Assembly (NCBI GenBank): GCA_041663145.1
Contig: JBAZRG010000001.1
Span: forward strand, 74,467 to 138,466
From: Minisyncoccota bacterium
Lineage (GTDB): Bacteria > Patescibacteriota > Minisyncoccia > Phycocordibacterales > PALSA-1337
DNA length: 64,000 nucleotides
Direction of reading: 5' to 3'
Positions 6,776 through 62,369 of the stretch are shown piece after piece (position 1 is the first letter of the stretch; each line of letters opens with the position of its first letter). Made by a program: the position numbers and the translations under genes. The notes under the pieces are model-generated. The model had not been told where the DNA came from. It ran no database searches and was given only the letters and a program-made list of their open reading frames with translations.

Positions 6776-7606
6776 TTATTTGTTTCTGTTCAGGAGATTC
6801 GTTACGACACTTATGGTCTCCCGGGCGTAGCCGTTTTGACAAAAACTGAAATGTCCGCCCCTGACCCGTATGTGTTCTTTGACTCCAAGAAGTTGGACTG
6901 TTTCCATTTGTGTATCGAATGGAACGAAGCCATCATCGCAGGTCACTATCATTGCTACGTGACAGCTGAGTGTGTTAACTTTCGGAGCCGGAATGCCGAG
7001 ACTCACTTCTCGTAATATGTGTCCCGACTCGGCCTGGATCTCAGCGTTTGACCCATCTTTCACCAAGATGGCATCGTCGGCCAATAGTCTGAATGGATGC
7101 CCGAATAATGCCCTCAAATAGTACGGCTTCACCATCCTTTTTACCAGACTCTTTGGCAACCCTACTCCTTTAGGGGGAGCCGCCGCGATCATACAGACGA
7201 ATTTCACTTTGTCCGGGCATTGTCTCGCTACTTCTAGGGCTACGAGTGAACCCAAAGAGTGTCCGACGATCGACACTTTTCCAAGTGAAGATCTGACTTC
7301 TTCGACTATTGATCTGACGAAGTCGCGAAAATGGACATCCGCCAGATTCATGGATAGATTATTGCTGTGGCCGGGGTATTCCGGATAATAAGCTCTGAAG
7401 CCGTCAAGAGGAAATCGGTTTCCCCATTGTCTCTTGTTTAGGCTGAACATTCCACCAAGGAAGAGAACTTCCTCTTTTCTAGTTACAACTCTAAACCTTT
7501 GAGGATTGAAATCCAGGTATTTCCTGGATTCCCGCAGGTTTAATGGCCGCGGGAGAAGCGGTATATTGGTTTTCATAGTGCAAATTTTCTCTTGCGATGA
7601 TAGCAT
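6776..7606 (-). CDS. Alpha/beta-fold hydrolase
   Basis: Nucleophile elbow 'IVGHSLGS'. Length and pattern are typical of the fold. Confidence 0.6.
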   Translation of the reverse strand: MLSSQEKICTMKTNIPLLPRPLNLRESRKYLDFNPQRFRVVTRKEEVLFLGGMFSLNKRQWGNRFPLDGFRAYYPEYPGHSNNLSMNLADVHFRDFVRSIVEEVRSSLGKVSIVGHSLGSLVALEVARQCPDKVKFVCMIAAAPPKGVGLPKSLVKRMVKPYYLRALFGHPFRLLADDAILVKDGSNAEIQAESGHILREVSLGIPAPKVNTLSCHVAMIVTCDDGFVPFDTQMETVQLLGVKEHIRVRGGHFSFCQNGYARETISVVTNLLNRNK

Positions 7607-7648
7607 CTATAGATAACTTTGTCAAATTAGCTATTTGACAACTATGCA

Positions 7649-7984
7649 TTGGTTGTGATACCATATATGAAGATAACCATGAAAACTCTAAGTGTATTTG
7701 CGGGAATGAGCAATTATTTTGCCATTCCCGCCAGCTTATCTCCAGAAGAAGAGAAAATCTTTATGAGAGAGGCTGAAAAAATCAACACCTTGATTGAGAA
7801 TGACATTTTCCGATCAAGAGAAGAAACATTCTCAGAGATTCTTGACGAATCAGGGGTGTCTGAGGAAGTCTTGAGGAAACTCCAGCATTTGGTCGAACTG
7901 ACCGGTCTCAGTTTCTATTATAGTCGAGACAATGGTAAGTGGCTTATCGGGATAAGCGCCCCGATTTACCAATGCTCGCAATAA
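7649..7984 (+). CDS. Hypothetical protein
   Basis: ORF followed by a strong terminator hairpin at about 7986-8025 (AGTCCGTGGAT...ATTCACGGACT plus T-run). Confidence 0.4.
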   Translation: MVVIPYMKITMKTLSVFAGMSNYFAIPASLSPEEEKIFMREAEKINTLIENDIFRSREETFSEILDESGVSEEVLRKLQHLVELTGLSFYYSRDNGKWLIGISAPIYQCSQ

Positions 7985-8078
7985 CACGAGTCCGTGGATT
8001 TGAAAAAGATTCACGGACTTTTTGTTTATCTATTTATCATAACGCAACCATACATATCCTTTTTCTTCCGAGAATATT

Positions 8079-8654
8079 TTGCGAACAATATGCCAGTATA
8101 TGAGCTTGACTACATACCTACTACACTGTAGATTTTCAATGGAGAAAGGACAAAAGATGTTTGATAATAACCATAAAATCCTATCAGACAATAGTTTCGT
8201 CAATATCACGGGCCTTTCGACGCAAGTTGCGACCGATGGTCCGGAAGGCTTTGTAAAAGCGTATATCAGACCGGAATCGTCCTGGATGGGTAAATGGACG
8301 ATAATCAGGGTATTTAATCGTAACTACATTGTTCTGGTCACCGATACAGGACAAATCTGGATCCGACCGAAATTTGAAAATGAAGATATTTCTGAGATAG
8401 AATATCTTCTCTGTGAGATCTGTCTGTGTGGTTACGATGAGAATATGGTCGAAAGATATTTCGATAAATTCTTTTCTGGATACCCTGGACATCCCGTCAT
8501 GAATGTTTCAGGTGTATTCGAGAGATTAGTTGATCCATACTGGTCCGAGCTCACAGTCAACACCAAAAGCAGTGCTCAGATTGAGAAAGAGGTTGCTGTT
8601 TGGCGCTACAATAACTCCGGTATGGAGCAATGGCCAAGGATTTGGATGATGTAA
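8079..8654 (+). CDS. Hypothetical protein
   Basis: ORF only. The true start may be the internal Met 'MEKGQKMF'. Confidence 0.35.
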   Translation: MRTICQYMSLTTYLLHCRFSMEKGQKMFDNNHKILSDNSFVNITGLSTQVATDGPEGFVKAYIRPESSWMGKWTIIRVFNRNYIVLVTDTGQIWIRPKFENEDISEIEYLLCEICLCGYDENMVERYFDKFFSGYPGHPVMNVSGVFERLVDPYWSELTVNTKSSAQIEKEVAVWRYNNSGMEQWPRIWMM

Positions 8655-11217: not shown

Positions 11218-11404
11218 TTAGAGAGTCTTTCTTGGTTTGCTAATCAGGTGAGCTGAGTTGTCAATCTGTGTGTATATTGACACATCCTATCAAAGCCGTC
11301 AATCTTTTGATTGACAAATATTCTGTGCTTGCACTGCGTAGCTCGCGATTAGCGAGCGAAGTAGTCCTCCTTCGCTCGTAGGACACGAGCTTCGGAGGGA
11401 CAAG

Positions 11405-11486
11405 TGCCGGGAGGGAGAATCGAACTCCCATGGATTACTCCGCACGATTTTGAGTCGTGTGCGTCTACCAATTCCGCCATCCCGGC
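11405..11486 (-). tRNA. tRNA-Leu (CAA), type II
   Basis: Minus-strand reading GCCGGGA...TCCCGGC-A. Anticodon loop CTCAAAA, long variable arm, T-loop TTCGATT. Confidence 0.8.
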
Positions 11487-20118: not shown

Positions 20119-20268
20119 AGCTCGGCAAATACTGTCCTAAAATAACTCACAAGGTCACCCGCTCCAAATTGCAACCGTATTAGAGCAGATGGAACTACTC
20201 TAATACGGGCAATTTGTTCGGGGTTCAAATCGCATTGTGAGTTATTTTAGGACAGTATTTGCCGAGCT
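20119..20268. repeat. Perfect 34-bp inverted repeat (AGCTCGGCAAATACTGTCCTAAAATAACTCACAA) flanking an 82-bp core that contains an 11-bp-stem hairpin
   Basis: Arms at 20119-20152 and 20235-20268 are exact reverse complements. The inner hairpin CCGTATTAGAG...CTCTAATACGG is at 20175-20208. It sits between convergent genes. Confidence 0.85.
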
Positions 20269-26172: not shown

Positions 26173-26443
26173 TGATTTATATTATACTTGTAATTACCAT
26201 GTCTTAACAATCCTGAATCAGTTGAGGTCAGAAATGCTCATTTACATTTCCAAATAAATTTAATTTTGTTAAAATACTGAAAGTTCTTGTAAATAGAAGG
26301 GGGTGAGGGGGAGGACTCCCCAATAAAGGTTGGCGCTGAGGAGGTCCGTAAATGCGCCGTAAACCCTTGTCCCCTTATGTTTATAAGATTTTGAACAGAG
26401 TCTGATCATTTGCCATTAATTGTTGATTTGAGTTAGTATTCAC

Positions 26444-28055: not shown

Positions 28056-28355
28056 GTGTTAAATTTAGTGTTACATAGGAACGAGATAATACGCCCAATG
28101 ATATATTACACTTACATTCTCAGATGTGCCGATGATTCTCTGTATGTTGGGTGTACGAACGATCTTGAAAAACGTCTTTTTCAACATAACAATTCTAAGC
28201 GAGGCGCGCACTACACGAAGATCAGAAGACCTGTAATATTGGTATACCACGAGAAATTCGTCACTCTGAGGAAAGCTCGAGGAAGGGAAGCAGAGCTCAA
28301 AAGTTGGAGAAGAGAACAAAAATTGGCGTTGGTGGGTACTAAGAAAAAGGCATAA
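28056..28355 (+). CDS. GIY-YIG nuclease superfamily protein (YhbQ/UPF0213-like, about 90-100 aa)
   Basis: 'YYTYILRCADDSLYVGCTNDLEKRLFQHN...GAHYT' GIY-YIG core. The start is probably the Met at about 28098. Confidence 0.65.
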   Translation: MLNLVLHRNEIIRPMIYYTYILRCADDSLYVGCTNDLEKRLFQHNNSKRGAHYTKIRRPVILVYHEKFVTLRKARGREAELKSWRREQKLALVGTKKKA

Positions 28356-28446
28356 CGAAATTGCTTTTTATTCATTAATTTGCTATTGTATGGACACAAG
28401 TGGCTTCGGCCTCACCTCCGAAAGGAGGAGAACAGGTGGAAAAATG

Positions 28447-29082
28447 TCAGAATAAATTTCTGGCATTTTTTCTTAATTCCTCAAATTTTTCTTTATCAAG
28501 AAAGCCTATTTTTTCGACATGACGTCGAGTATCGATTGATCGTATTTGAGAAAGAAGAGCTGACGCATGCTTTGTGTCGACTAGTCCAACAGGTATACGT
28601 AGATGATGTTTGTTGGGAGATGATGTTAGGGGGATAACCATGCATATTCTTGGTCCAAATTCTCGAATGATTACACATGGACGTAGAAATTCTTCACCAC
28701 TTCCGTCTTGTTCAAAACCAATATTGACTCCTAATCTACACCACCATATCTCTCTTGTTGTATATAGACGCTTCTCTTCAAGTTCTGCTTTTTTCTTTTT
28801 TGAATTCCATTTATCAAAATCTTTAGAATCAAGGTCTTTGTCAATCAAAGAAAATCTTATCCCATATTCTACTTCATATTCCAGATCTTTAATATGATTT
28901 TCAGCTTTATCTATTGCCAATCTTATAAAGTTAAAATCGCCGAGATGTTGTATATCCAAATCACTTTCATAATCTTTCTCAGAAACCCTAAATTTATCTA
29001 AGGAAATTTCTTCGATTTTTATATAATTGTTTGCACTCATAATAATTTGGGATAATTTTATTCTTAATTTTAGAAATAGCAA
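28447..29082 (-). CDS. MazF/PemK-family toxin fused to an acidic N-terminal extension of about 100 aa
   Basis: C-terminal 'REIWWCRLGVNIGFEQDGSGEEFLRPCVIIREFG...ICMVIPLTSS...HLRIPVG' matches the MazF/Kid pattern. The N-terminal 100 aa are D/E-rich. No separate antitoxin ORF is adjacent. Confidence 0.65.
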   Translation of the reverse strand: MLFLKLRIKLSQIIMSANNYIKIEEISLDKFRVSEKDYESDLDIQHLGDFNFIRLAIDKAENHIKDLEYEVEYGIRFSLIDKDLDSKDFDKWNSKKKKAELEEKRLYTTREIWWCRLGVNIGFEQDGSGEEFLRPCVIIREFGPRICMVIPLTSSPNKHHLRIPVGLVDTKHASALLSQIRSIDTRRHVEKIGFLDKEKFEELRKNARNLF

Positions 29083-29120
29083 GACAGACTTATATTTACC
29101 ATTTCCAAATAAATATAATT

Positions 29121-29438
29121 TTGTTAGAATACAAAATCATGACAAAAAACCCTTACCTCAACGCACTCATTGCTTCGCTTTACATCGTCTTTGTCGTACT
29201 CCTTATAACTTACGGTCCCATGTTTGTCAGAGAAAAACCGGATACAATTCTCGCTCCTATGGCGATGCTTAGCTTATTAGTTCTATCGGTTGCTTTTATG
29301 GGTTACACTTTCATCTTTCGACCGGCACTCATGTATATGGATGGACAAAAAAGTGAGGCGATAGGGCTTTTCACTAGGACATTACTTACGTTTTCTATTA
29401 TAACCGCTGTGATAGTTATTGTTGCCTTTTCCGTCTAG
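29121..29438 (+). CDS. Small membrane protein (3 predicted TM helices)
   Basis: Hydrophobic segments 'LIASLYIVFVVLLITY', 'LAPMAMLSLLVLSVAFMGY' and 'LTFSIITAVIVIVAF'. Confidence 0.45.
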   Translation: MLEYKIMTKNPYLNALIASLYIVFVVLLITYGPMFVREKPDTILAPMAMLSLLVLSVAFMGYTFIFRPALMYMDGQKSEAIGLFTRTLLTFSIITAVIVIVAFSV

Positions 29439-36605: not shown

Positions 36606-37204
36606 ATGAAAAAGAAGATCATCAAAAAAGAAGTAGTTATCTATCAAGCAAAGAACGGAGCGATCGAGTTGCGGGGTGATTTTACACATGAGACCGTGTG
36701 GGCAAATCGTATGCAAATGGCACTGATGTTCGATGTAAATCCACAAGCAATTTCGAAGCATATTCAAAATATTTATAATGAGAAGGAATTAGAGAGAAAA
36801 GCAACTAGTTCCAAAATGGAACTAGTTCAAAAAGAGGCCGGAAGGCAAGTGCACCGAGATGTAGATATGTAGATATTTTTGGAATAGAAAGAAGTCAAGG
36901 ATCTATAGCTGGAATTGTTGGCAATGTAATGCAGTCTTTCGAAGGTAAAGATCTCTATGAAAGTGCTGAAGAAAAAGCTTCGCACTTGTTGTACTTCATG
37001 GTAAAAAATCATCCATTCACTGATGGAAATAAAAGGAGTGGTGCTTTCGCTTTTGTATGGTTCTTGAAACAAGCCAATATTTTGGATGTATCCAAGCTTA
37101 CACCTTCGGCACTTACCGCACTCACGATCCTCGTTGCAAGTAGTAACCCGAAAGATAAAGATAAGGTTGTGGCTTTGATTCTGAATTTGATTGCTAGAAA
37201 ATAA
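36606..37204 (+). pseudogene. rhuM: Fragmented rhuM-like virulence/Fic-Doc family gene (two ORF pieces)
   Basis: Piece 1 (36606..36872): 'VIYQAKNGAIELRGDFTHETVWANRMQMALMFDVNPQAISKHIQNIY' matches the RhuM N-terminal domain. Piece 2 (36929..37204): 'EKASHLLYFMVKNHPFTDGNKRSGAFAFVWFL' matches the Fic/Doc HPFx(D/E)GNKR motif. Normally these are one protein of about 330 aa; here the middle is missing and the frames differ. Confidence 0.6.
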
Positions 37205-41392: not shown

Positions 41393-42247
41393 TCAGGAAG
41401 GCAATGTGATCCCATAGCCATTCTGAAAGTCGGCAAAAGACATTATTTTTGCGCCCTCAGGCAATACTTTTTCTATAATAAGTTTATCGTTTTTATATGA
41501 AGCCTCGATGATCTTGACCCGAATACTTCGGCCATCTCTTTTGTAGATGAAATATGCCTGTGGCCATGAATGATATGCTTGAATTTTTCGAAAATTGGTA
41601 TATGGATTTGCAGAAAGATCTATGAGACCGTCTTCTTTGGTGACCTTTTTGGTGTAAGTGGCATATTCATGTTTTTGTGGAAGAGCGGTAACACTGCCGT
41701 CCATCCATTTTGGTAATATTTCTACCAATAGACGAGCTCCTTCTCGAGCCATCATTTCTTCGAATTTCTCATAGGTCGGCCATTCGGTAACGATTACATT
41801 TTTTTGGGCAACGATCGGACCATGGTCCATTTCCGAATCGAGTACCATGATAGACACTCCCGTTTCTTTCACATCATCAATCATCATGGTTGGCAGTGGT
41901 GAAGGACCTCGATATTCTGGAAGAAGGGAGGGGTGAATATTCAGTGTCTGTTTTTTGGGTATATCAAGCAAAGATTTTGGCAAGATGCGTCCATAGGATG
42001 CAACAATGAATACATCTACATTCAAGTTTGCAAGTTCCGGACCTAGCTCCTTTGGTGAAGAATCAAAAACTTTTATATTTCTTTCCACCCCCCATTGTTT
42101 CGTGACATTAGGTGTTAGTATTTGTTTTCTTCCAACTGGCTTATCCTTAGTCGTCACGATACATTTAGGTAACATATGTGCTTTCTCCAATTCGTCCAAG
42201 ACGATGATTGAAAATCTCGATGAACCGAAGAAGGCAAAATTAATCAT
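41393..42247 (-). CDS. fmt: Methionyl-tRNA formyltransferase
   Basis: N-terminal formyltransferase fold ('FFGSSRFS', 'HPSLLPEYRGPSP') plus a C-terminal domain. Overlaps def. Confidence 0.8.
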   Translation of the reverse strand: MINFAFFGSSRFSIIVLDELEKAHMLPKCIVTTKDKPVGRKQILTPNVTKQWGVERNIKVFDSSPKELGPELANLNVDVFIVASYGRILPKSLLDIPKKQTLNIHPSLLPEYRGPSPLPTMMIDDVKETGVSIMVLDSEMDHGPIVAQKNVIVTEWPTYEKFEEMMAREGARLLVEILPKWMDGSVTALPQKHEYATYTKKVTKEDGLIDLSANPYTNFRKIQAYHSWPQAYFIYKRDGRSIRVKIIEASYKNDKLIIEKVLPEGAKIMSFADFQNGYGITLPS

Positions 42248-42779
42248 GATTTTGTGTCTGTAACTCCTCGATTTCTTCGGGAGTCATTTCCCAGACTTCC
42301 TTGGCATTGTCTATGAATAATACGCCTTTCAAATGATCTATCTCATGTTGAAAAACTTGAGCCAAAATACCGCTTGCTCCACGCTCGATCTTTTTTCCAG
42401 TTTCATCATAAGCGCTTATGATGACTCTTTTTGCTCGACGAACCTTGCCATAGAACCAACGCACGGATAGGCATCCTTCTTCGACATCATGTTTTTCTTT
42501 TGAGATTTTGAGTAAAACAGGATTGATGAAAATAAGATCCGATCCATCGCCTCGATATGAAGGGTCGGCTTGCTTCAAGACTGTTCCGGAAACTACAAAA
42601 ATTTGCAGGTCAACACCGATCTGAGGAGCTGCGATAGCGATGCCGTCTTTTTGTTTACCCATCGCGGTACGCATCTTGGCGATTACAGAATTGATAGCTG
42701 GACTGCCAATATCTGAAATGGGTACAGGTCTCGCTGTCTGTCTCAATATGGGATGATCTTTGTCGACGATTTCGTTCAT
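42240..42779 (-). CDS. def: Peptide deformylase
   Basis: 'GIAIAAPQIG', 'EGCLS' and 'QHEIDHLKG' motifs. Confidence 0.9.
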   Translation of the reverse strand: MNEIVDKDHPILRQTARPVPISDIGSPAINSVIAKMRTAMGKQKDGIAIAAPQIGVDLQIFVVSGTVLKQADPSYRGDGSDLIFINPVLLKISKEKHDVEEGCLSVRWFYGKVRRAKRVIISAYDETGKKIERGASGILAQVFQHEIDHLKGVLFIDNAKEVWEMTPEEIEELQTQNHD

Positions 42780-42814
42780 TTATATACTATAACAGTGTTA
42801 TGATGATTAGTAAA

Positions 42815-43070
42815 ATTACATCTGCAACCTCTCACACATCATTACATATGTATAGACCCCAACATAATGTTCCCGCCACAATCCTGCGTAATCGCTTCTC
42901 AAATTACAACCGTGTTTGGTTCCAAGGCTTCACCAAACACGGGTAATTTTTCGAAGCTCAATCGCATACTCGGATTGTTTCGGGAACATTATGTTGGGGG
43001 TCATGACATAAGCATAAGTTCGCAAAATGTTCTCGGAAGACAAAAATGATGTGTGAGGGGTTGCAGATGG
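42815..43070. repeat. Composite palindromic MITE-like element, copy 1 (inner TIR element 42855-43004 nested in an outer 27-bp inverted repeat)
   Basis: Inner TIRs GACCCCAACATAATGTTCCCG / CGGGAACATTATGTTGGGGGTC. Outer IR ACATCTGCAACCTCTCACACATCATT / AATGATGTGTGAGGGGTTGCAGATG. An internal hairpin CCGTGTTTGGT...ACCAAACACGG is also present. A second copy lies at 55355-55536. Confidence 0.8.
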
Positions 43071-43089: not shown

Positions 43090-45015
43090 CTAGAGTAAAC
43101 TTTCTGGATTTATCTTGACACTGACATCTGGTGGCATTTGGCGGATCTTATCGATCAGTACTGGATCAGGCCATGAATGAGATTCTATAGATAAGAGTCC
43201 GTGGATCACAGATTTACCTCTGACTGTTGAAGTAAAAGCTGGAAAGATATTTAGATCGGCCGGGTCTAAGATTTTTTGGATCACAGCCATCTGTTTTGAG
43301 ATCTTTTCTTTTTCACCTTCTATCGTGATTTTGACCAAGACAGTATATGGCGGATATTGAAATTGCTTTCGTTCGGCGAGAGCTGATCGATAAAAATCGG
43401 ACAGATTGCCTTTTAGACCGTATTCAAATACTTTTTCGGATATATGACGCGTTTGGACCATGATCGTACGCGAAGCCATGCCACGAAGACGTACTAGTGT
43501 ATGCATGATTTTTTCTTGGATTCGAAAATCCGGTAGAGCAAAAAGGGAATCCAATGAAGCTATTGCTACATGATCGATCCGATCTAACAAATACAATGCC
43601 GCCATATCAGTTCCGAGTAATATACTACCGGGGTGGCTCTTAAATTTATCTAATGTATCATTTACTTTTTTATCGGTTTCAGTCAGGTCCTTGTCGATCT
43701 GGAATAAATCTATGTCTGGAAATTTAGTTTTGATTTCCAGAGCAACCTTGTCTATACCGATACCTAGTGGAGTCAATCTCCAACTTCCACATGATATGCA
43801 ATTTTCTTCGGCATCACATCTCTCACCACATTTGTGACACATAAAGAAATTTCTACCACTTTCTGTTGAAGTATGGAGTACGACTGGCGCAGAACAGTTT
43901 TTGCACATTACGATAGTCTCACAATCATCACATACGGTGAGAGGCGAATGTCCACGACGCAAAGTCAAGATGAATAAATGAGTGTTTTGTTCTTGATTGG
44001 CGCGAATCAACTCCTCAAGTTCTTTTGAAAGTATCCGAAAACCGTCGGCTTTAGCTGTTTTTATCTTCATATCAACCAATTTATCCTGTGCGGTCGATAT
44101 TGATCTCCATTTGAAAGGTGATCCTTCTTCGATATTTTCAGTCTCCAATCTATGCAAAGTCTCGATTGAAAGCAGACTGTCAGCTAGATATATACTCTGT
44201 TTTGATTGTAAACCGATAGTTTCCAAAGCGTGTCTTATATCCAAATAAGGCGCTTTCAAAGTTCGCCAATTTCTAGAATTTTCTCTTTCAATAATGATTG
44301 TGTCGATATCGTCTCGTGGCAAGATGGGGAATGATCCGGTTGCGATGACGACGATGGGGTGCAGAGTCTCAGAGATTTTAGTCCATGTTTCGACAATCTG
44401 TTTTTTTGTTAGATCACCATTCAACTTGAATATATAACCCTCTATTCCTTTTTCCAGTACTTTATAAAAATATTCAGAGTCGGCTATGGTTGGAGTGTAT
44501 ATGACTATAGATCGCTTACGGGCAAATTCCTGACGGATGAGACTGCGCCATGAACTGATCCTGTCGAGATCATTTGCCTGTATCGCAAAAATATTATTCT
44601 TGGCCATGATCGGATCGGAATTTTTCGGCTTTGCAGTTTCAAATGAGTTTTGCCTAGGCAAAGGAGGTCTGATCTTGTCTGATTGATCTAAGATAGTTCT
44701 AGCAACCATAGTGTCGATGATGGCACCGATCGTTGTGGCATAGTGTATAGACAATTTATTTGAGGCTGCTATAAATGCTGGAGGGAAGAACATCACAGCT
44801 TTGATCTTGCCTAGTTTGCGGATAATGAATCCAGCTTTTTTGATATCCATCTTTTGATCGACAGCATCTTCGCTTTTCGTAACTACGGCGTGAATGCTCT
44901 TTGATCGAAGTGGAACGGTTACGATAGCGCCTATTGGGACATCGGTAGAAGTGAAATATGACAGTTCTCCGGATATCTTCGAATTTGAAAGCGGTATGAC
45001 CGTAATGATGTTCAT
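43090..45015 (-). CDS. priA: Primosomal protein N' (PriA-like) with a Cys-rich zinc-binding insert; helicase motifs look degenerate
   Basis: N-terminal 3'-DNA-binding-domain-like segment, Cys cluster 'CDDCETIVMCKNC...CHKCGERCDAEENCISCGS', and a PriA C-terminal region. I could not find a GxGKT Walker A or a DExH box by eye. Confidence 0.65.
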   Translation of the reverse strand: MNIITVIPLSNSKISGELSYFTSTDVPIGAIVTVPLRSKSIHAVVTKSEDAVDQKMDIKKAGFIIRKLGKIKAVMFFPPAFIAASNKLSIHYATTIGAIIDTMVARTILDQSDKIRPPLPRQNSFETAKPKNSDPIMAKNNIFAIQANDLDRISSWRSLIRQEFARKRSIVIYTPTIADSEYFYKVLEKGIEGYIFKLNGDLTKKQIVETWTKISETLHPIVVIATGSFPILPRDDIDTIIIERENSRNWRTLKAPYLDIRHALETIGLQSKQSIYLADSLLSIETLHRLETENIEEGSPFKWRSISTAQDKLVDMKIKTAKADGFRILSKELEELIRANQEQNTHLFILTLRRGHSPLTVCDDCETIVMCKNCSAPVVLHTSTESGRNFFMCHKCGERCDAEENCISCGSWRLTPLGIGIDKVALEIKTKFPDIDLFQIDKDLTETDKKVNDTLDKFKSHPGSILLGTDMAALYLLDRIDHVAIASLDSLFALPDFRIQEKIMHTLVRLRGMASRTIMVQTRHISEKVFEYGLKGNLSDFYRSALAERKQFQYPPYTVLVKITIEGEKEKISKQMAVIQKILDPADLNIFPAFTSTVRGKSVIHGLLSIESHSWPDPVLIDKIRQMPPDVSVKINPESLL

Positions 45016-46401: not shown

Positions 46402-46423
46402 CGCGTTCGAACCTTCCAGAAGG

Positions 46424-46508
46424 AACTTCCCTCCCGTGCTCCGAGGACGGGTAGCTAGCGATTAGCGCCCGCAGGAGACGGGAGGGAAGTTCCTTCTGGA
46501 AGGTTCCT
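46424..46508. repeat. GC-rich 26-bp perfect inverted repeat with a 30-nt loop (intergenic murA-mreB)
   Basis: CCTTCCAGAAGGAACTTCCCTCCCGT ... ACGGGAGGGAAGTTCCTTCTGGAAGG. The loop carries 'GCGATTAGCG'. Confidence 0.8.
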
Positions 46509-52653: not shown

Positions 52654-55332
52654 ATGCCTCCACTTCAGAAACTAACTACAAAAGCTAGAGAAGCCTTGCG
52701 CAGAGCCCATGAATTGGCTATTGAACGCGGACAAAATCACGTAAATCCGGTGCATTTATTGTGCGCCCTTATTTTGCAAGAAGAGAGTATGGTTGCTTCT
52801 ATTCTAGATCGAATGGAAGTCGACACTCCGATGCTCACAGATGTCGTATTGGAGCATATCGAAGCTCCTGAAGGCTCTAACGTCCTTTCACCATCGTATC
52901 AGATATACCTCACACCTGACCTTGCCCAGATTCTCGATAATTCAGTAAAAGTAGCGGCAAGTCTCAAAGATGAATTTATTTCTACAGAACATTTATTCTT
53001 GTCCATTTTTGATATACCATGCATGGCTCGTGATATTTTGGCTCGATTTAAGATAGAGAAGGAAGCTGTGACAAAAATCATTACCGAATTGAAATCAAAT
53101 CCACCATCGAAAGACGCAGAACCAAAGAAGTTTAGGACTCTGCTCAAATACGCCAGATCTCTCACCAAACTTGCTCGTGAAAATAAGCTGGATCCGGTGA
53201 TAGGACGTGATGCAGAAATCATGCGCATCATCCAGATTCTTTCCAGACGCACAAAAAACAATCCGATTCTGATCGGTGAAGCCGGTGTCGGTAAAACGGC
53301 GATCGTCGAAGGTTTGGCTTTGCGAATGGCTCAAGGCGATATTCCGGAATCGTTACGCGACAAAGAACTAGTCTCACTTGATCTAGGTTCGCTTATTGCT
53401 GGTACGAAATATCGTGGTGAATTTGAGGAAAGACTGAAAAATATTTTGAAAGAAGTAGAACGTTCTGATGGCAAAATCATTCTATTCGTTGATGAGATAC
53501 ACACTCTAGTTGGAGCCGGAGCATCGGAAGGATCAATGGACGCCTCGAATATGCTCAAACCTGCCTTGGCCAGAGGTGAACTCCGAGCCATAGGAGCAAC
53601 AACCATAAAGGAGTATCAAAAATACATCGAAAAAGATCCGGCTTTGACACGAAGGTTCCAACCGGTGTTTGTGAATGAACCTTCTCAAGATGACGCTGTT
53701 TCCATTTTACGTGGACTGAAAGAAAAATATGAACTATTTCATGGTGTGCGAATCACTGACGATGCGATCATGGCCGCGGTCAATCTTTCCAGTCGTTACA
53801 TAGCGGACAGATTCCTGCCTGACAAAGTCGTCGATCTCATAGATGAAGCTTCGTCTTCGTTGCGCATTTCACTTGAAAATATGCCTCCGGAACTCGAGGA
53901 GACGAGGAGAAAGATCATGCGACTAGAGATCGAACGTGAGGCTCTCAAAAAAGAGACTGATAAAGTTGCAAAACAACGTCTGAGTAAGATCGAAGAAGAA
54001 ATAGCAAATCTCAAAGAAGGTACTTCCGAACTCGAACTCAAATGGAAAAATGAAAAAGAAACCATTGCCGATATCAAACGTCTAAAAACGGAGATCGAGG
54101 CATTGCGCATTGAAGGTGAAGGAGCCGAGGCGCGTGCTGATCTAGCAAAAGCCGCCGAGATTCGCTATGGCAAATTACCTCAAATCGAAAAAGAGCTGGA
54201 ACAGAAAAATCGCCGACTAAAGAAACTGCAATCTTCTAGGCGCATCTTGAAGGAAGAGATCAATTCTGAAGACATAGCAGGTGTTGTATCGCGCTGGACA
54301 GGTATACCAGTCTCGCGCATGTTGGAGTCTGAAGCAAAGAAATTGACTCGCATGGAAGAAGAATTGGAAAAGAGAATAGTTGGTCAAAGTGAAGCAGTAA
54401 AGAAGATTTCGGATACGATCAGGAGATCGAGAGCCGGCGTAGCTGATCCAAATCGTCCGATCGGTTCATTCATCTTTCTTGGACCTACTGGTGTCGGAAA
54501 AACCGAGCTCACCAAGGCTTTGGCTGAATTCCTATTCAACGACGAACGATCTCTCATACGAGTCGATATGTCGGAGTTCATGGAAAAACATTCTGTATCA
54601 AAACTTATTGGCGCGCCTCCTGGCTATGTCGGTTACGACGAATCTGGAGGTCTTACAGAATCCGTAAGACATCGACCGTACTCCGTAATACTTTTTGATG
54701 AAATCGAAAAGGCGCATCCAGAAGTATTCAACGTGCTTTTACAAGTTCTGGACAATGGCCGACTCACGGATTCGAAGGGGCGTGTGGTAAATTTCAGAAA
54801 TACAGTCATAATCATGACATCGAATATCGGTGCTCAACATATCGAACGAATGGAGAAATTTGGTTTCTCCCGCAATAGCGACGATCATGACCGAGAGAAC
54901 TATGTCGAAGCCAAAAATAAGATCAATAACACGCTTAAGGACTACTTCCGTCCGGAATTTTTGAATCGCCTCGACGACATCATCATCTTTGATATTTTGT
55001 CCGAAGAGGCAATAAGAAAGATTGTTGATATTCAGGTTACTCAAGTCACGAAGCGTCTCTCCGATAAACAGATCGAACTTTCTCTCATGCCGGCTGTTTA
55101 CGAATATCTAAGCAAACAAGGTTACAATCCACAGTATGGAGCACGTCCACTCAAACGCTTGATACAAAATATGATTCTAAATCCTGTAGCTAATATGCTC
55201 ATCGGTCAAGAAGTGGCTAAAGGCGGACAGATCGTAGTCGATTATCGAAATGAAAAATTCACTTTTGAGGTTCGCAAGAAGAAGCGCGGTGAGAGTCCTA
55301 TTATTGTCCGCGACATAATGATGCAGAAGTAG
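52654..55332 (+). CDS. clpB: ATP-dependent chaperone ClpB
   Basis: Two AAA+ modules ('[15 protein letters not shown]' and '[15 protein letters not shown]'), a long middle coiled coil, and a Clp N-domain. 892 aa. Confidence 0.95.
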
Positions 55333-55354: not shown

Positions 55355-55536
55355 CACGTGACCCCCAACATAATGTTCCCGCCACAATCCTGCCCAGTAG
55401 GCGATCGTGCTCGATCGCGTAATCGCTTCTCAAATTACAACCGTGTTTGGTTCCAAGGCTTCACCAAACACGGGTAATTTATCGAAGCTCAATCGCATAC
55501 TCGGATTGTTCTGGGAACATTATGTTGGGGGTCACG
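55355..55536. repeat. MITE-like element, copy 2 (26-bp perfect TIR CACGTGACCCCCAACATAATGTTCCC)
   Basis: Same core as 42855-43004, about 90% identical, with a roughly 30-bp internal insertion (CCAGTAGGCGATCGTGCTCGATCGC). Confidence 0.85.
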
Positions 55537-55555: not shown

Positions 55556-55715
55556 GATTTACACAGACAAGACCTAACATCTGTCTTTTTCTTCCGAGAA
55601 TAATCTGCGAAACAATATACCAATACATTTTCCAAAGGACTCGCGAATCCTTGTAGCGAGTCCTTTGTGAAAATGTTGGTATATTGTGAGCAGAGTTCGA
55701 GGATGAAAAAGACAG
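55556..55715. repeat. Second nested palindromic element (28-bp IR ACAGACAAGACCTAACATCTGTCTTTTT), containing a 12-bp-stem hairpin
   Basis: IR arms at 55556-55585 and 55685-55715. Inner hairpin CAAAGGACTCGC...GCGAGTCCTTTG. A 40-bp block inside ('CTTTTTCTTCCGAGAATA.T.TGCGAA.CAATAT.CCA.TA') is repeated at 8047-8090. Confidence 0.8.
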
Positions 55716-55725
55716 ATGTTAGGTC

Positions 55726-58446
55726 TTGTCTGTAAATTTACTTGTCGAATTAGTAAAATTGTGCTACTATCCGCCCACTATGTCCGGACAAAAGCGTCAT
55801 CAAATAGAGGTTAAAGAGAACTCTCGTATAGGTCACGACAAAATCGTGGTCAAGGGAGCGCGTACCCACAATCTCCGAAATATCACAGTAGAGATGCCTA
55901 GAAATGCAATGATTGCAGTTACCGGACTCTCTGGTTCCGGAAAATCATCATTGGCATTCGATACCATATTTGCTGAAGGACAGAGACGTTACGTCGAATC
56001 ACTTTCCGCATATGCTCGTCAATTTCTCCATAAGATGCAAAAGCCGGATGTCGATGAGATCATTGGACTGTCGCCGGCTATTTCCATCGATCAAAAATCG
56101 AGATCAAACAATCCTCGATCGACAGTAGCAACTATCACTGAGATATACGACTATATGCGCGTGCTTTTTGCTCGAGTCGGAAAACCACACTGTCTCGTAT
56201 GTGGTCGCGCCATACATCGCATATCGAAAGAAGAAATCCTGAATACTATTCTAAATACGGTAAATACAAAAACTGGTAAAGCAAAAAAAGTGTTCGGTGT
56301 GGAGATACGTCAAGCTAAAATTCAGATTTATGCGCCGATCGTAGTCGGTCGAAAGGGTGAATACTATCAGATGCTATACGATCTATTGGGTAAAGGTTAT
56401 GATCGTGTGCGAATCGATGGAGTTGGATACAGACTGCGCGACCGAATTATTCTAGAAAAGAATCACAAACATGATATAGATATTTTAGTCGATGAAATAT
56501 TCCTGTCAGAATTTGAGGGAGCCGGAAAAGAAAACGCCAAAGAAAGATTGTCAGAATCGTTGGAGCAGGCGATAAGAGAGGCTGACGGTCTGATCAAGAT
56601 AGAATATCCAAAATCAGCACAGTCAGATGGTGGAAATAGCAAATCCTCATCCACTGAAGTAGATGGAAAACTGATGTCGGTCAAATTCATGTGCCCGTAC
56701 GATGGATTTTCATATCCGGAAGTTGAACCTCGACTGTTTTCTTTCAATTCTCCGTACGGAGCATGTCCTGAATGTAATGGTCTAGGCACGGAAAGTATTT
56801 TTTCCGAAAAACCTTGTCCGAAATGCAAAGGCGCTCGTCTGCGCGAAGAAGCTCTCAAGGTTATGATAGACAACAAAAATATTGTGGACATAACAAATAT
56901 GTCCATAGAAAAAGCCATTGTTTATTTTAAGGATATCTCTCTTTCCGATACTGAAAAAGAGATTGCCAAAGTCGTACTAAAGGAAATTTCATCCAGACTG
57001 TCATTTATGGTAAACGTCGGTATCGAATATCTGACTCTGGATCGGAGAGCCCATACACTTTCTGGAGGTGAAGCACAGCGCATCAGACTGGCATCTCAGC
57101 TTGGTTCAGGCCTGGTTGGCGCTCTCTATGTACTCGATGAACCGACGATCGGTCTCCACCAAAGAGACAATGATCGATTGATCCAGACATTGCTTCGTCT
57201 CCGAGATCTGGGCAATACTATAATAGTAGTGGAACACGATGAAGATACGATGTTTTCATCCGACTATATCATCGACATTGGTCCTGGCGCCGGAGTGGCA
57301 GGCGGTCGAGTGGTAGTTTCTGGTTATCTAGATGAATTGCTCACAGCCAAAACAAATCCTTCCAAATCGCTGACTTTGGCATATTTGCGCGGCGAAGAAT
57401 CTATCCCAGTACCTGTAAGAAGACGTGAACCAAAAGGAAAGATATCTATTCGAAACGGAAATGTTTTCAACATCAAAGATATGAATGTCGACATTCCATT
57501 GTCATCGTTGAATGTTATCACGGGTGTTTCCGGATCTGGTAAATCGTCTCTGATGTATGAAATTCTGTATAGAAATCTTGAAGCTCGTTTTGAACGCAGA
57601 AATAGAAGTGATGAGACGATAAATTGTAAAAGTTTTACTGGATCGGAGTATGTTGGAAGAGTGATTCTCATCGATCAGTCGCCGATCGGTAGAACACCGC
57701 GTTCAAATCCCGCCACCTATACCGGTGCTTGGACGCATATCCGTGATCTATTCGCCGCCGAATCAGAATCGAGAGCTAGAGGGTGGGGTGCCGGCAGATT
57801 TTCATTCAATAGACCCGGTGGCCGATGTGAGGCCTGTGAAGGTAATGGGGAAATAGCTGTTGAAATGCATTTTTTGCCGACCGTCTATGTGACGTGTGAT
57901 GTCTGTGGCGGTACTAGATTTACAAAAGAAACTCTCGATATCAAATTCCGAGGAAAAAATATTCACGAAGTTTTGGAATTGACTATAGAAGAAGGACTAA
58001 GTTTCTTTGCGGATATTCCGGCTGTTGAAGATAGATTGAAGACCCTGATCGATGTGGGACTAGGATATGTTCGACTGGGTCAATCCGCAACGACACTTTC
58101 GGGTGGTGAAGCGCAACGTGTAAAGATATCATCCGAGCTCTACAGAGCGCATTTGCAAAAAACCATATATCTTCTGGACGAACCAACAGTTGGACTTCAT
58201 TATGAAGATGTTCGAAAATTGATCGATATCCTTCAACAGTTGGTGAATAAGGGTAATACTGTAGTTGTTATAGAACACAATCTGGACCTGATAAAAAATG
58301 CCGATTACGTTATCGATATCGGACCTGAAGGAGGCGATCGAGGTGGAAAGATCGTGGCAAAAGGCACGCCCGAAGATGTTGCAAAAAGCGAGCTTAGTTA
58401 CACTGGAAAATATTTGAAGAAGTCACTGAAGACAAAAAAGCCATAG
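55726..58446 (+). CDS. uvrA: Excinuclease ABC subunit A
   Basis: Two ABC modules ('[14 protein letters not shown]', '[13 protein letters not shown]'), Zn fingers ([10 protein letters not shown]; CEACEGNG), and signature 'LSGGEAQR' twice. The probable start is Met 'MSGQKRHQ' at about 55780. Confidence 0.95.
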
Positions 58447-58716
58447 CGTAAGCTAAGGCATTGCAACTAGCAATAATAGGCCAAACTTGATCATAAGTGA
58501 CGAATTCTGTGAATGTAGCGTCGAGGCGGTCTAGTTAAAACAGTCAGAAGTTGAAATGTTCCAAGTATTAGGCAGCCTATTATGGTTACTATGAATGTGG
58601 CAATAAGTAGGAATGGGCCGACAAATTCTTTGTTCTTTAGCCTAGAATTACATTGTTCCAAAATAACATATTCGTTCATATTTCCTTGTATGTTGGCAGT
58701 TTGAATCGAAAGATCA

Positions 58717-59991: not shown

Positions 59992-60084
59992 AAAATCCCG
60001 AACAACTCACACCTGTCCCTAATAAGCACGTGAATTGCTCTGCAGAGCAATTCACTCTGTCCTCAGTACATCTATACACTATGA

Positions 60085-62168: not shown

Positions 62169-62369
62169 CTATTTCTTCAGTAAATCATCAACCGATACAT
62201 CAAGGGCTTTCGCAATCCTTTGAATCGTCTCAATGGTAGGGTTAGGACTTTCGTCTAACTCTATCTTAACAATCGTATTGAGCGACAAATCGGCAAGTTT
62301 AGAGAGTTTATCTTGCGAAAGCCCTTTATCTAGCCTGTATCGTTTGATGTTTTTGCCTATTGTGGACAT
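62169..62369 (-). CDS. XRE-family helix-turn-helix transcriptional regulator
   Basis: 'IKRYRLDKGLSQDKLSKLADLSLNTIVKIE' is a Cro/C1-type HTH. 66 aa. Confidence 0.75.
   Translation of the reverse strand: MSTIGKNIKRYRLDKGLSQDKLSKLADLSLNTIVKIELDESPNPTIETIQRIAKALDVSVDDLLKK

Follow-up and report, generated by a model that had tools for sequence, protein, structure and literature searches.

A 64,000-nt (64-kb) stretch of a 356,648-bp contig from a Candidatus Paceibacterota metagenome-assembled genome (MAG; candidate phyla radiation, CPR, also called Patescibacteria) was analyzed, and this whole stretch, hereafter the window, is the scope of all window counts and scans given below. Two copies of a short non-coding element with terminal inverted repeats (TIRs) were found in it, dispersed, near-identical and with sharp boundaries, one between priA and def and the other between clpB and uvrA. 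We consider it fairly probable that they represent a palindromic insertion element specific to this Paceibacterota lineage, either like a miniature inverted-repeat transposable element (MITE) in the broad sense or a dispersed repeat of the REPIN, Correia or ERIC kind. The family is new, and the kind of small bacterial palindromic repeat is already familiar. Strict membership among the DDE-derived MITEs is unproven, since copy 1 has no target-site duplication (TSD) and no partner insertion sequence (IS) is known. The element and its surroundings have the following coordinates.

42855–43002, plus strand: copy 1, 148 nt, GACCCC...GGGGGTC, between the priA stop (43090) and the def promoter/start (42779)
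42857–42884, plus strand: left TIR of copy 1, 19 nt perfect and 28 nt at 93%, containing the dyad AACATAATGTT
42972–42999, minus strand: right TIR of copy 1
42894–42957, plus strand: apical core of copy 1, with counterparts at 55425–55488 (copy 2) and 20158–20222 (e20k, a third hairpin described below)
55360–55533, plus strand: copy 2, 174 nt, between the clpB stop (55332) and uvrA
55394–55418, plus strand: copy-2-specific insert, 25 nt, its placement ambiguous by about 3 nt
42819–42843, plus strand: left arm of an outer inverted repeat (IR) that encloses copy 1
43003–43069, minus strand: right arm of the outer IR (43045–43069) together with module B, whose motif CTTCCGAGAACATTTTGCGAA lies at 43019–43039

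These limits bear out an earlier note on this DNA, which had placed two copies at these sites in the intergenic regions def–priA and clpB–uvrA. The flanking genes were confirmed by NCBIfam as fmt and def (41393–42779, minus strand; def product MFA6314872.1), priA (43090–45015, minus strand; WC648_00675), murA (plus strand), clpB (52654–55332, plus strand) and uvrA (plus strand). The measurements in that note had to be revised. Once the internal indel is set aside, the copies are 98% identical instead of about 90%, with 3 mismatches outside the insert and a 1-nt difference in a terminal C-run, and given this identity the element was duplicated recently. The insert of copy 2 comprises 25 nt, not 30, is unique in the window and forms a side hairpin (GCGATCG-TGCT-CGATCGC). 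TIRs are present as described, with other lengths than the 20–26 bp proposed, namely those listed above for copy 1, and 26 nt perfect and 36 nt at 92% for copy 2. A hairpin is present as well, although it is not confined to the interior, since the entire unit in both copies is one long imperfect palindrome. The minimum free energy (MFE) as RNA is −76.5 kcal/mol (plus strand) and −82.1 kcal/mol (minus strand) for copy 1 and −86.7 kcal/mol for copy 2, with z-scores from −12 to −14, and as single-stranded DNA (ssDNA) the element folds at −49.2 kcal/mol (z −12.7). The core of copy 1 consists of a 5-bp stem, a 7-bp CAAATTAC/GTAATTT stem, an AA bulge and an 11-bp apical stem. Neither the 148-nt nor the 174-nt copy has any coding capacity.

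Each arm of each copy carries the TIR 18-mer CCCCAACATAATGTTCCC, which gives four occurrences in the window where 0.04 are expected. A scan for exact IRs (arms ≥16 nt, loops ≤260 nt) returned five in the window and none in 20 shuffles. These two results exclude chance as the source of the repeat. All five IRs begin 1–50 nt after a stop codon; besides copies 1 and 2 they are as follows.

20119–20268, plus strand: e20k, a 150-nt palindrome with 34-nt perfect arms, z −16
46409–46506: e46k, a 98-nt hairpin with 29-nt perfect arms, 7 nt past the murA stop
55563–55733: pal55k, a 171-nt near-perfect palindrome of the module B family with 29-nt perfect arms

The hairpin e20k, which fills the 200 nt separating the convergent dus and Kelch-repeat genes and whose right arm reaches the Kelch stop codon, is probably a distant family member, as judged from shared register and structure. 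The core stem starts at position 40 in both e20k and copy 1, the offsets of the 17-mer CAAATTRCAACCGTRTT differ by one (45 against 46), and each has an apical stem of 11 bp and, on the same strand as in the other, an AA bulge of 2 nt. Relative to the core of copies 1 and 2, e20k carries 4 compensatory pair changes, and the consensus of the conserved core, CAAATTRC-AA-CCGT...ACGG-GYAATTT, holds the same offset in the 148- and 150-nt members. The outer arms of e20k are unrelated to those of copy 1, and the similarity in sequence is modest (p ~0.005 against shuffles; only marginally the best match in the window). A covariance model of the core, R1, was trained on these three sequences (copy 1, copy 2 and e20k). 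In the window, R1 found only its own three training sequences; a 19.9-bit match at the apex of pal55k was set aside as a generic hairpin match.

Comparison with relatives identified the clpB–uvrA copy as an insertion. The distance between clpB and uvrA is 447 nt in the window and 78 nt in the relative L038, whose ClpB is 87% identical. When copy 2, one ACGT and the palindrome at 55563–55733 were excised in silico, 104 nt were left, and this remainder was colinear with the L038 spacer (score 43; the best of 1000 shuffles reached 36), the aligned stretch covering both the excision point (AGAG..GTGATTTACA) and the promoter region. Thus, copy 2 and the neighboring palindrome are both insertions, present here and absent there, in a comparison that is inter-species and not allelic (ClpB 87–89% and PriA 62–64% identical between relatives and window). 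An apparent empty site in another relative, L037 (CTTT-GT-ACGTGTA), was not significant by itself (p=0.12).

The element was absent from all seven relatives' loci examined (L008, L009/L010, L011/L012, L035, L036, L037 and L038), including their priA–def and clpB–uvrA regions, by blastn and, where it was run, by the covariance model. R1 was run over about 85 kb from L008, L009, L011, L012, L035 and L036 and found nothing; L037 and L038 were examined with blastn and an IR scan only. A weak blastn match at L035 7714–7734 was supported by neither model nor context. Among the relatives, comparable IR elements were seen only in L008, the MAG WC666 (Paceibacterota, PriA 62% identical), at the three places below, with 31–35-nt perfect arms and non-palindromic interiors; one sits 25 nt past the priA stop, and a 48-aa open reading frame (ORF) is called on one of them.

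L008 130–291: IR element
L008 3389–3540: IR element
L008 8929–9171: IR element

The murA–mreB spacer measures 13–113 nt in relatives and 129 nt here, 98 nt of which is the hairpin at 46409–46506. The priA–def gap holds different small accessory genes in each of L008, L009, L011 and L035, for example a Peptidase_M78-like protein and hypothetical proteins of 169–217 aa, and since its content differs in every relative, this junction is an insertion hot spot across the lineage.

The immediate surroundings of the two copies are palindromic as well. The second inverted repeat that the earlier note had drawn around copy 1 is real, with arms (42819–42843 and 43045–43069) of 25 nt, not 27, complementary at 24 of 25 positions. 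It has no second occurrence in the window. The region 43003–43069, to which its right arm belongs, is homologous to 8040–8105 and to the left half of the palindrome at 55563–55733. The shared module B of about 60 nt contains ...TTTTTCTTCCGAGAAYATTTTGCGAAC... / CTTCCGAGAAnnnTnTGCGAA, a motif found three times in the window against 0.04 expected, and its occurrences are as follows.

8040–8105, plus strand: module B
43003–43069, minus strand: module B, beside copy 1
55563–55625, plus strand: module B, left half of pal55k
55670–55733: mirrored module B in pal55k

Because module B is shared, copy 1 sits inside one member of a second repeat family, and copy 2 has another, pal55k, at a distance of 29 nt; pal55k is itself unrelated to copy 2 and folds as RNA at an MFE of −111.6 kcal/mol (z −21.7). 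Every module B occurrence falls between the 3′ end of a gene and the next promoter; the one at 8040–8105 is not palindromic, and the two others belong to long inverted repeats. An ATTTAC direct repeat was seen at the left edge of pal55k and 2 nt past its right edge. Beyond the shared boundary of the element, the copy-specific flanks are complementary in copy 2 (p=0.011) and weakly so in copy 1 (p=0.10), where the 25-nt outer IR, itself highly significant, surrounds them in turn. Both copies thus occupy centers of local dyad symmetry. Copy 2 has ACGT on both sides, and because CACGTG is palindromic, a duplication of 2, 4 or 6 bp and a lengthened IR are equally good readings, all yielding the same reconstructed empty site.

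With respect to genes, copy 1 lies downstream of priA and upstream of a promoter-like site of def, which is downstream of the whole hairpin complex. Copy 2 begins 27 nt past the clpB stop, its IR extension 22 nt past it, and the promoter-like site of uvrA follows everything palindromic.

42786–42814, minus strand: def promoter-like site, TTTACT-17-TATAGT with an upstream TG, 6 nt before the def ATG
55742–55782, plus strand: uvrA promoter-like site, TTGTCG-17-TACTAT and then CCGCCCACT, assigned by eye and below the scan threshold

The uvrA start is most likely the ATG at 55780, and its −10-like box together with CCGCCMAC-ATG is conserved in the relatives L037 and L038. Only 6–9 nt separate the −10-like boxes of def and uvrA from the start codons (42779–42814 and 55742–55782 in the window), and the uvrA motif TAYTATCCGCCMAC-ATG is kept in relatives (L037 8625–8656; L038 11293–11333), which suggests leaderless or nearly leaderless mRNAs. 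Given that copies 1 and 2 are co-oriented and that their host genes lie on opposite strands, the copies are inverted relative to transcription and any effect of the element must be independent of orientation, as a palindrome would lead one to expect. No rho-independent terminator site was found at either element, the tails after the hairpins not being T-rich, although ordinary intrinsic terminators do occur in the genome (e.g., 7990–8025).

Several results weigh against reading the two copies as a mobile palindromic insertion element. Among the 62 of 70 window ORFs that were annotated with Pfam/NCBIfam, no gene for a transposase, integrase/recombinase, HUH enzyme or reverse transcriptase (RT) was present, so that the matching transposase which the earlier note had proposed to look for has no candidate of any class there; these 62 ORFs comprise housekeeping genes and a small GIY-YIG protein, a MazF-like toxin, an NYN-domain protein and a Fic fragment. 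The TIR 18/19-mer gave only isolated matches in 185,579 GTDB species genomes, JGI metagenomes and IMG/VR, and since these five matches of 18–20 nt had no partner arm and lay in unrelated contexts, they are due to chance. A concatenated six-frame query of the element matched no called ORF in any frame among about 15 billion proteins. Besides the two copies, the window holds one distant relative, e20k, which keeps the core and not the termini, as is atypical of MITEs defined by a transposase. The proposed check for TSDs also failed: no direct repeat flanks copy 1, whichever ends are chosen (TATA on one side and ATGA on the other), and the ambiguous, palindromic ACGT is the only possible TSD at copy 2, so that a fixed-length TSD at every copy is lacking.

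The core 17-mer had 22 matches in IMG/VR, none with a partner half, which were taken as chance; blastn against plasmid and phage records found no match to the element; and no IS with a matching TIR was present in the genome, metagenome, viral, plasmid or phage collections searched. Look-ups of the edge genes extended the sequence past the window by only 1.4 kb, all of it uvrB coding sequence. A search of the literature library used returned no paper on MITE-like repeats in CPR/Patescibacteria. The term MITE-like holds for what is non-coding, bounded by TIRs, near-identical between copies and inserted at clpB–uvrA; it is not supported by a consistent TSD, nor by a parent IS in the collections searched.

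Three other explanations of the hairpins were considered. A functional cis-acting hairpin (a long terminator, an insulator, an RNA-processing site or a small RNA gene), duplicated between loci by recombination, would account for the placing of both copies and the other long hairpins, 1–50 nt behind a stop codon and ahead of the following promoter, and for the compensatory changes that keep the core stems paired between copies 1/2 and e20k. This covariation does not discriminate, because DNA palindromes keep their complementarity without any RNA function. The outcome named in the earlier note as a refutation, a structured RNA conserved in relatives, was not seen: at gathering thresholds, Rfam 15 found only tRNAs in the window, and permissive scans gave only generic matches to miRNA-precursor hairpins, 60–180 bits below threshold. 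With the U-tract signature of a terminator missing at both copies, opposite orientations to host transcription at the two loci, and the element absent at the same loci in all relatives examined, where the clpB–uvrA spacer of L038 is complete without it, we regard a functional hairpin as rather improbable. A site of a site-specific recombinase, such as an integron attC-like site, a Xer/dif-like site or an invertible segment bounded by inverted repeats, is suggested by the termini, read by eye as CCCCAAC-ATAAT-GTTCCCG ... CGGGAAC-ATTAT-GTTGGGG. These resemble the attC arrangement R″(RYYYAAC)-5 nt-L″ ... L′-5 nt-R′(GTTRRRY), with 6/7 per box by eye, and ATTATGTT and CATAATGT are also found in the dif site of E. 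coli, again by eye; the outer 25-nt IR, moreover, brackets a 201-nt segment adjoining a promoter. Against this, the R/L region is perfectly paired and has neither the extrahelical bases nor the unpaired central spacer that define attC function, no full 28-bp dif-like site can be written, the neighbors def, priA, clpB and uvrA are core housekeeping genes and not cassettes, no intI, xer or invertase gene was found among the 62 window ORFs scanned, and e20k does not have these termini, so that such a site is very unlikely. An assembly artefact, a chimeric palindrome produced by the assembler or by amplification, deserves mention because strong palindromes are a known class of artefact and short-read contigs break inside hairpins. 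An independent short-read assembly (Logan SRR18595301), however, recovers both flank/TIR junctions of copy 1, with one contig (L002) covering def up to 42875 and another (L003) running from 42972 through priA and murA, and copies with different flanks share the same internal asymmetries (a CC/TT internal loop and the AA bulge), which makes an artefact scarcely credible. The other end of L003 falls in the loop (46453) of the single-copy hairpin at 46409–46506; the breaks are thus probably a property of hairpins generally, and we rejected the Logan contig ends as proof of further copies.

A closer competitor is a REPIN-like element moved as ssDNA by an HUH/Y1 enzyme (RAYT or IS200/IS605-type) or another hairpin-recognizing enzyme, in which the hairpin and the apical core with its AA bulge would be the recognition unit and no target duplication would arise. 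Such a mechanism agrees with a whole element that is a hairpin, stable also as ssDNA, with the want of a convincing TSD, with a core whose offset is unchanged in e20k and whose 4 pair changes there are compensatory, although the arms of e20k differ, and with a position downstream of genes which matches that of REP/REPIN sequences. The three members are also co-oriented on the plus strand whatever the direction of the genes, which is a hint only (n=3, p ~0.25). On the other side, no Y1_Tnp/RAYT gene was found among the 62 window ORFs scanned, and the arms carry no conserved GTAG-type motif. The 25-nt insert had prompted the idea of a REP-like family of GTAG with a GC-hairpin, but this motif shows no enrichment (6 found, 4.15 expected). 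REPINs normally number tens to hundreds of copies, against 2–3 seen in the window, and the relationship of copy 1 and e20k has a p of only ~0.005 from sequence alone. We consider the REPIN-like explanation unlikely as a whole. Even so, the pattern of a conserved core, divergent termini and no TSD fits a hairpin-recognizing (REPIN/HUH-like) mechanism somewhat better than a DDE-type MITE, although the window ORFs scanned include no gene for such a mechanism and no hallmark motif was seen. The dyad of the TIR was also tried as a LexA/Cheo box (GAAC-N4-GTTC) and dropped, as by eye the spacing is N5 and one half-site is mismatched.

The favored palindromic insertion element works like Correia/NEMIS, ERIC, REPIN/BIME and other palindromic intergenic repeats in anatomy and position, while sharing no sequence with anything in the collections searched. 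The Correia/NEMIS elements of Neisseria and the ERIC/IRU elements of enterobacteria are likewise non-coding imperfect palindromes of 100–155 nt with TIRs and long RNA hairpins, occupying intergenic co-transcribed positions and encoding no transposase; their size variants arise via internal insertions and deletions, with which the 25-nt insert of copy 2 may be compared. The element differs from them in lacking any sequence similarity and the TA duplication typical of Correia, and in its numbers, two copies and one distant relative in the window against tens to hundreds. REPINs mobilized by RAYT show the same hairpin of two inverted arms, no clear target duplication and an extragenic position just downstream of genes, and the element is likewise an extragenic hairpin of two inverted units 3′ of genes. 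Its 148 nt exceeds the typical REPIN length, its arms have no GTAG, and a RAYT/Y1 gene is missing from the window ORFs scanned. Copy 1 inside a module B element and copy 2 beside one recall the mosaics of repeat modules known as BIMEs. With the MITEs of DDE-type IS (IS630/Tc1, IS5, IS1595 and others) it shares a short, AT-average, non-coding sequence, TIRs of 19–36 nt, near-identical copies, insertion polymorphism relative to relatives and nesting, and it differs from them in having no consistent TSD, no parent IS found, and a relative, e20k, that keeps the interior and not the TIRs. Integron attC sites are imperfect palindromes of comparable length with similar box-like termini (6/7 to RYYYAAC and GTTRRRY), whereas here the C/G runs are one base too long and there are no extrahelical bases, unpaired spacer, integrase or cassettes.

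If the favored explanation is right, the element would owe its spread to an enzyme acting in trans, with a gene that lies in another part of the genome or has since been lost, and this enzyme would recognize either the 19-bp termini with their dyad or the folded hairpin. Insertion may tend to occur at centers of local dyad symmetry, which would explain both the nesting of copy 1 in the outer IR and the complementary flanks of copy 2. The sites, like those of four further long hairpins of the window, lie in the gap between stop codon and promoter, where insertions would be tolerated. Once inserted, the element would form the tail of the priA and clpB transcripts, and its hairpin of about 70 bp could in either orientation act as a barrier to read-through or exonucleases or as a substrate of RNase III, an effect that might render the position tolerated or mildly useful.

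Some further features of the window and its relatives were recorded. The apex of e46k shares GTAGCTNGCGATTAGCG (16/17) with a hairpin at 11338–11354 by the tRNA gene 11405–11486 (p estimated at ~0.03). Two candidates for degraded members of the family were rejected, one at 58455–58600 with a z of −0.1 and one at 62190–62338 that by eye appears to lie inside a small helix-turn-helix (HTH)-type ORF. Perfect loop-less palindromes occur at 60030–60055 (26 nt, in the uvrC–ddl gap) and at 42403–42424 (22 nt, inside the def coding sequence). The tRNA gene at 1310–1393 has its 3′ end repeated as a 21-nt perfect direct copy 164 nt downstream (1374–1394 and 1538–1558), with an inverted copy at 1456–1473 between the two, an arrangement that a small integrated element may have left behind or that may stem from a local rearrangement. 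Small accessory genes at 28056–29082 and 36929–37204 encode a 99-aa GIY-YIG protein, a MazF/PemK-like toxin with an N-terminal extension and a 91-aa Fic fragment, and a 33-nt repeat at 94% identity lies at 26245–26277 and 29100–29132. In the relative L035, an apparent tRNA gene at about 7030–7665 is, by eye, split by an insertion of about 580 nt with a small cysteine-rich ORF, which may be an intron with a homing endonuclease.

CPR/Patescibacteria have very small genomes in which, by the usual account, mobile DNA is scarce. In at least one Paceibacterota lineage, several long hairpins were recently inserted into the narrow spaces that separate core genes such as priA/def, clpB/uvrA and murA/mreB, namely the two copies, their distant relative and two or three unrelated palindromes, and most close relatives of this lineage do not have them. 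Such insertions mark recent mobile-DNA activity and intergenic remodeling in a reduced CPR genome; the hairpins probably cause contigs of such MAGs to break, and they may affect how far transcription reads through from one essential gene into the next. A more far-reaching idea, which we think unlikely, is that a class of elements exists in CPR lineages that are about 150 nt long, fully palindromic and TSD-less, conserved in the apical core rather than in the termini, and that home to dyad centers in the gaps between stop codon and promoter and so build nested or adjacent palindromes. If such a class were real, it would imply hairpin- or cruciform-recognizing mobilization, HUH-like or of an unknown kind, in an ultra-small genome without a local transposase, and only if the core-conserved, TSD-less reading is confirmed would a new biological principle follow.

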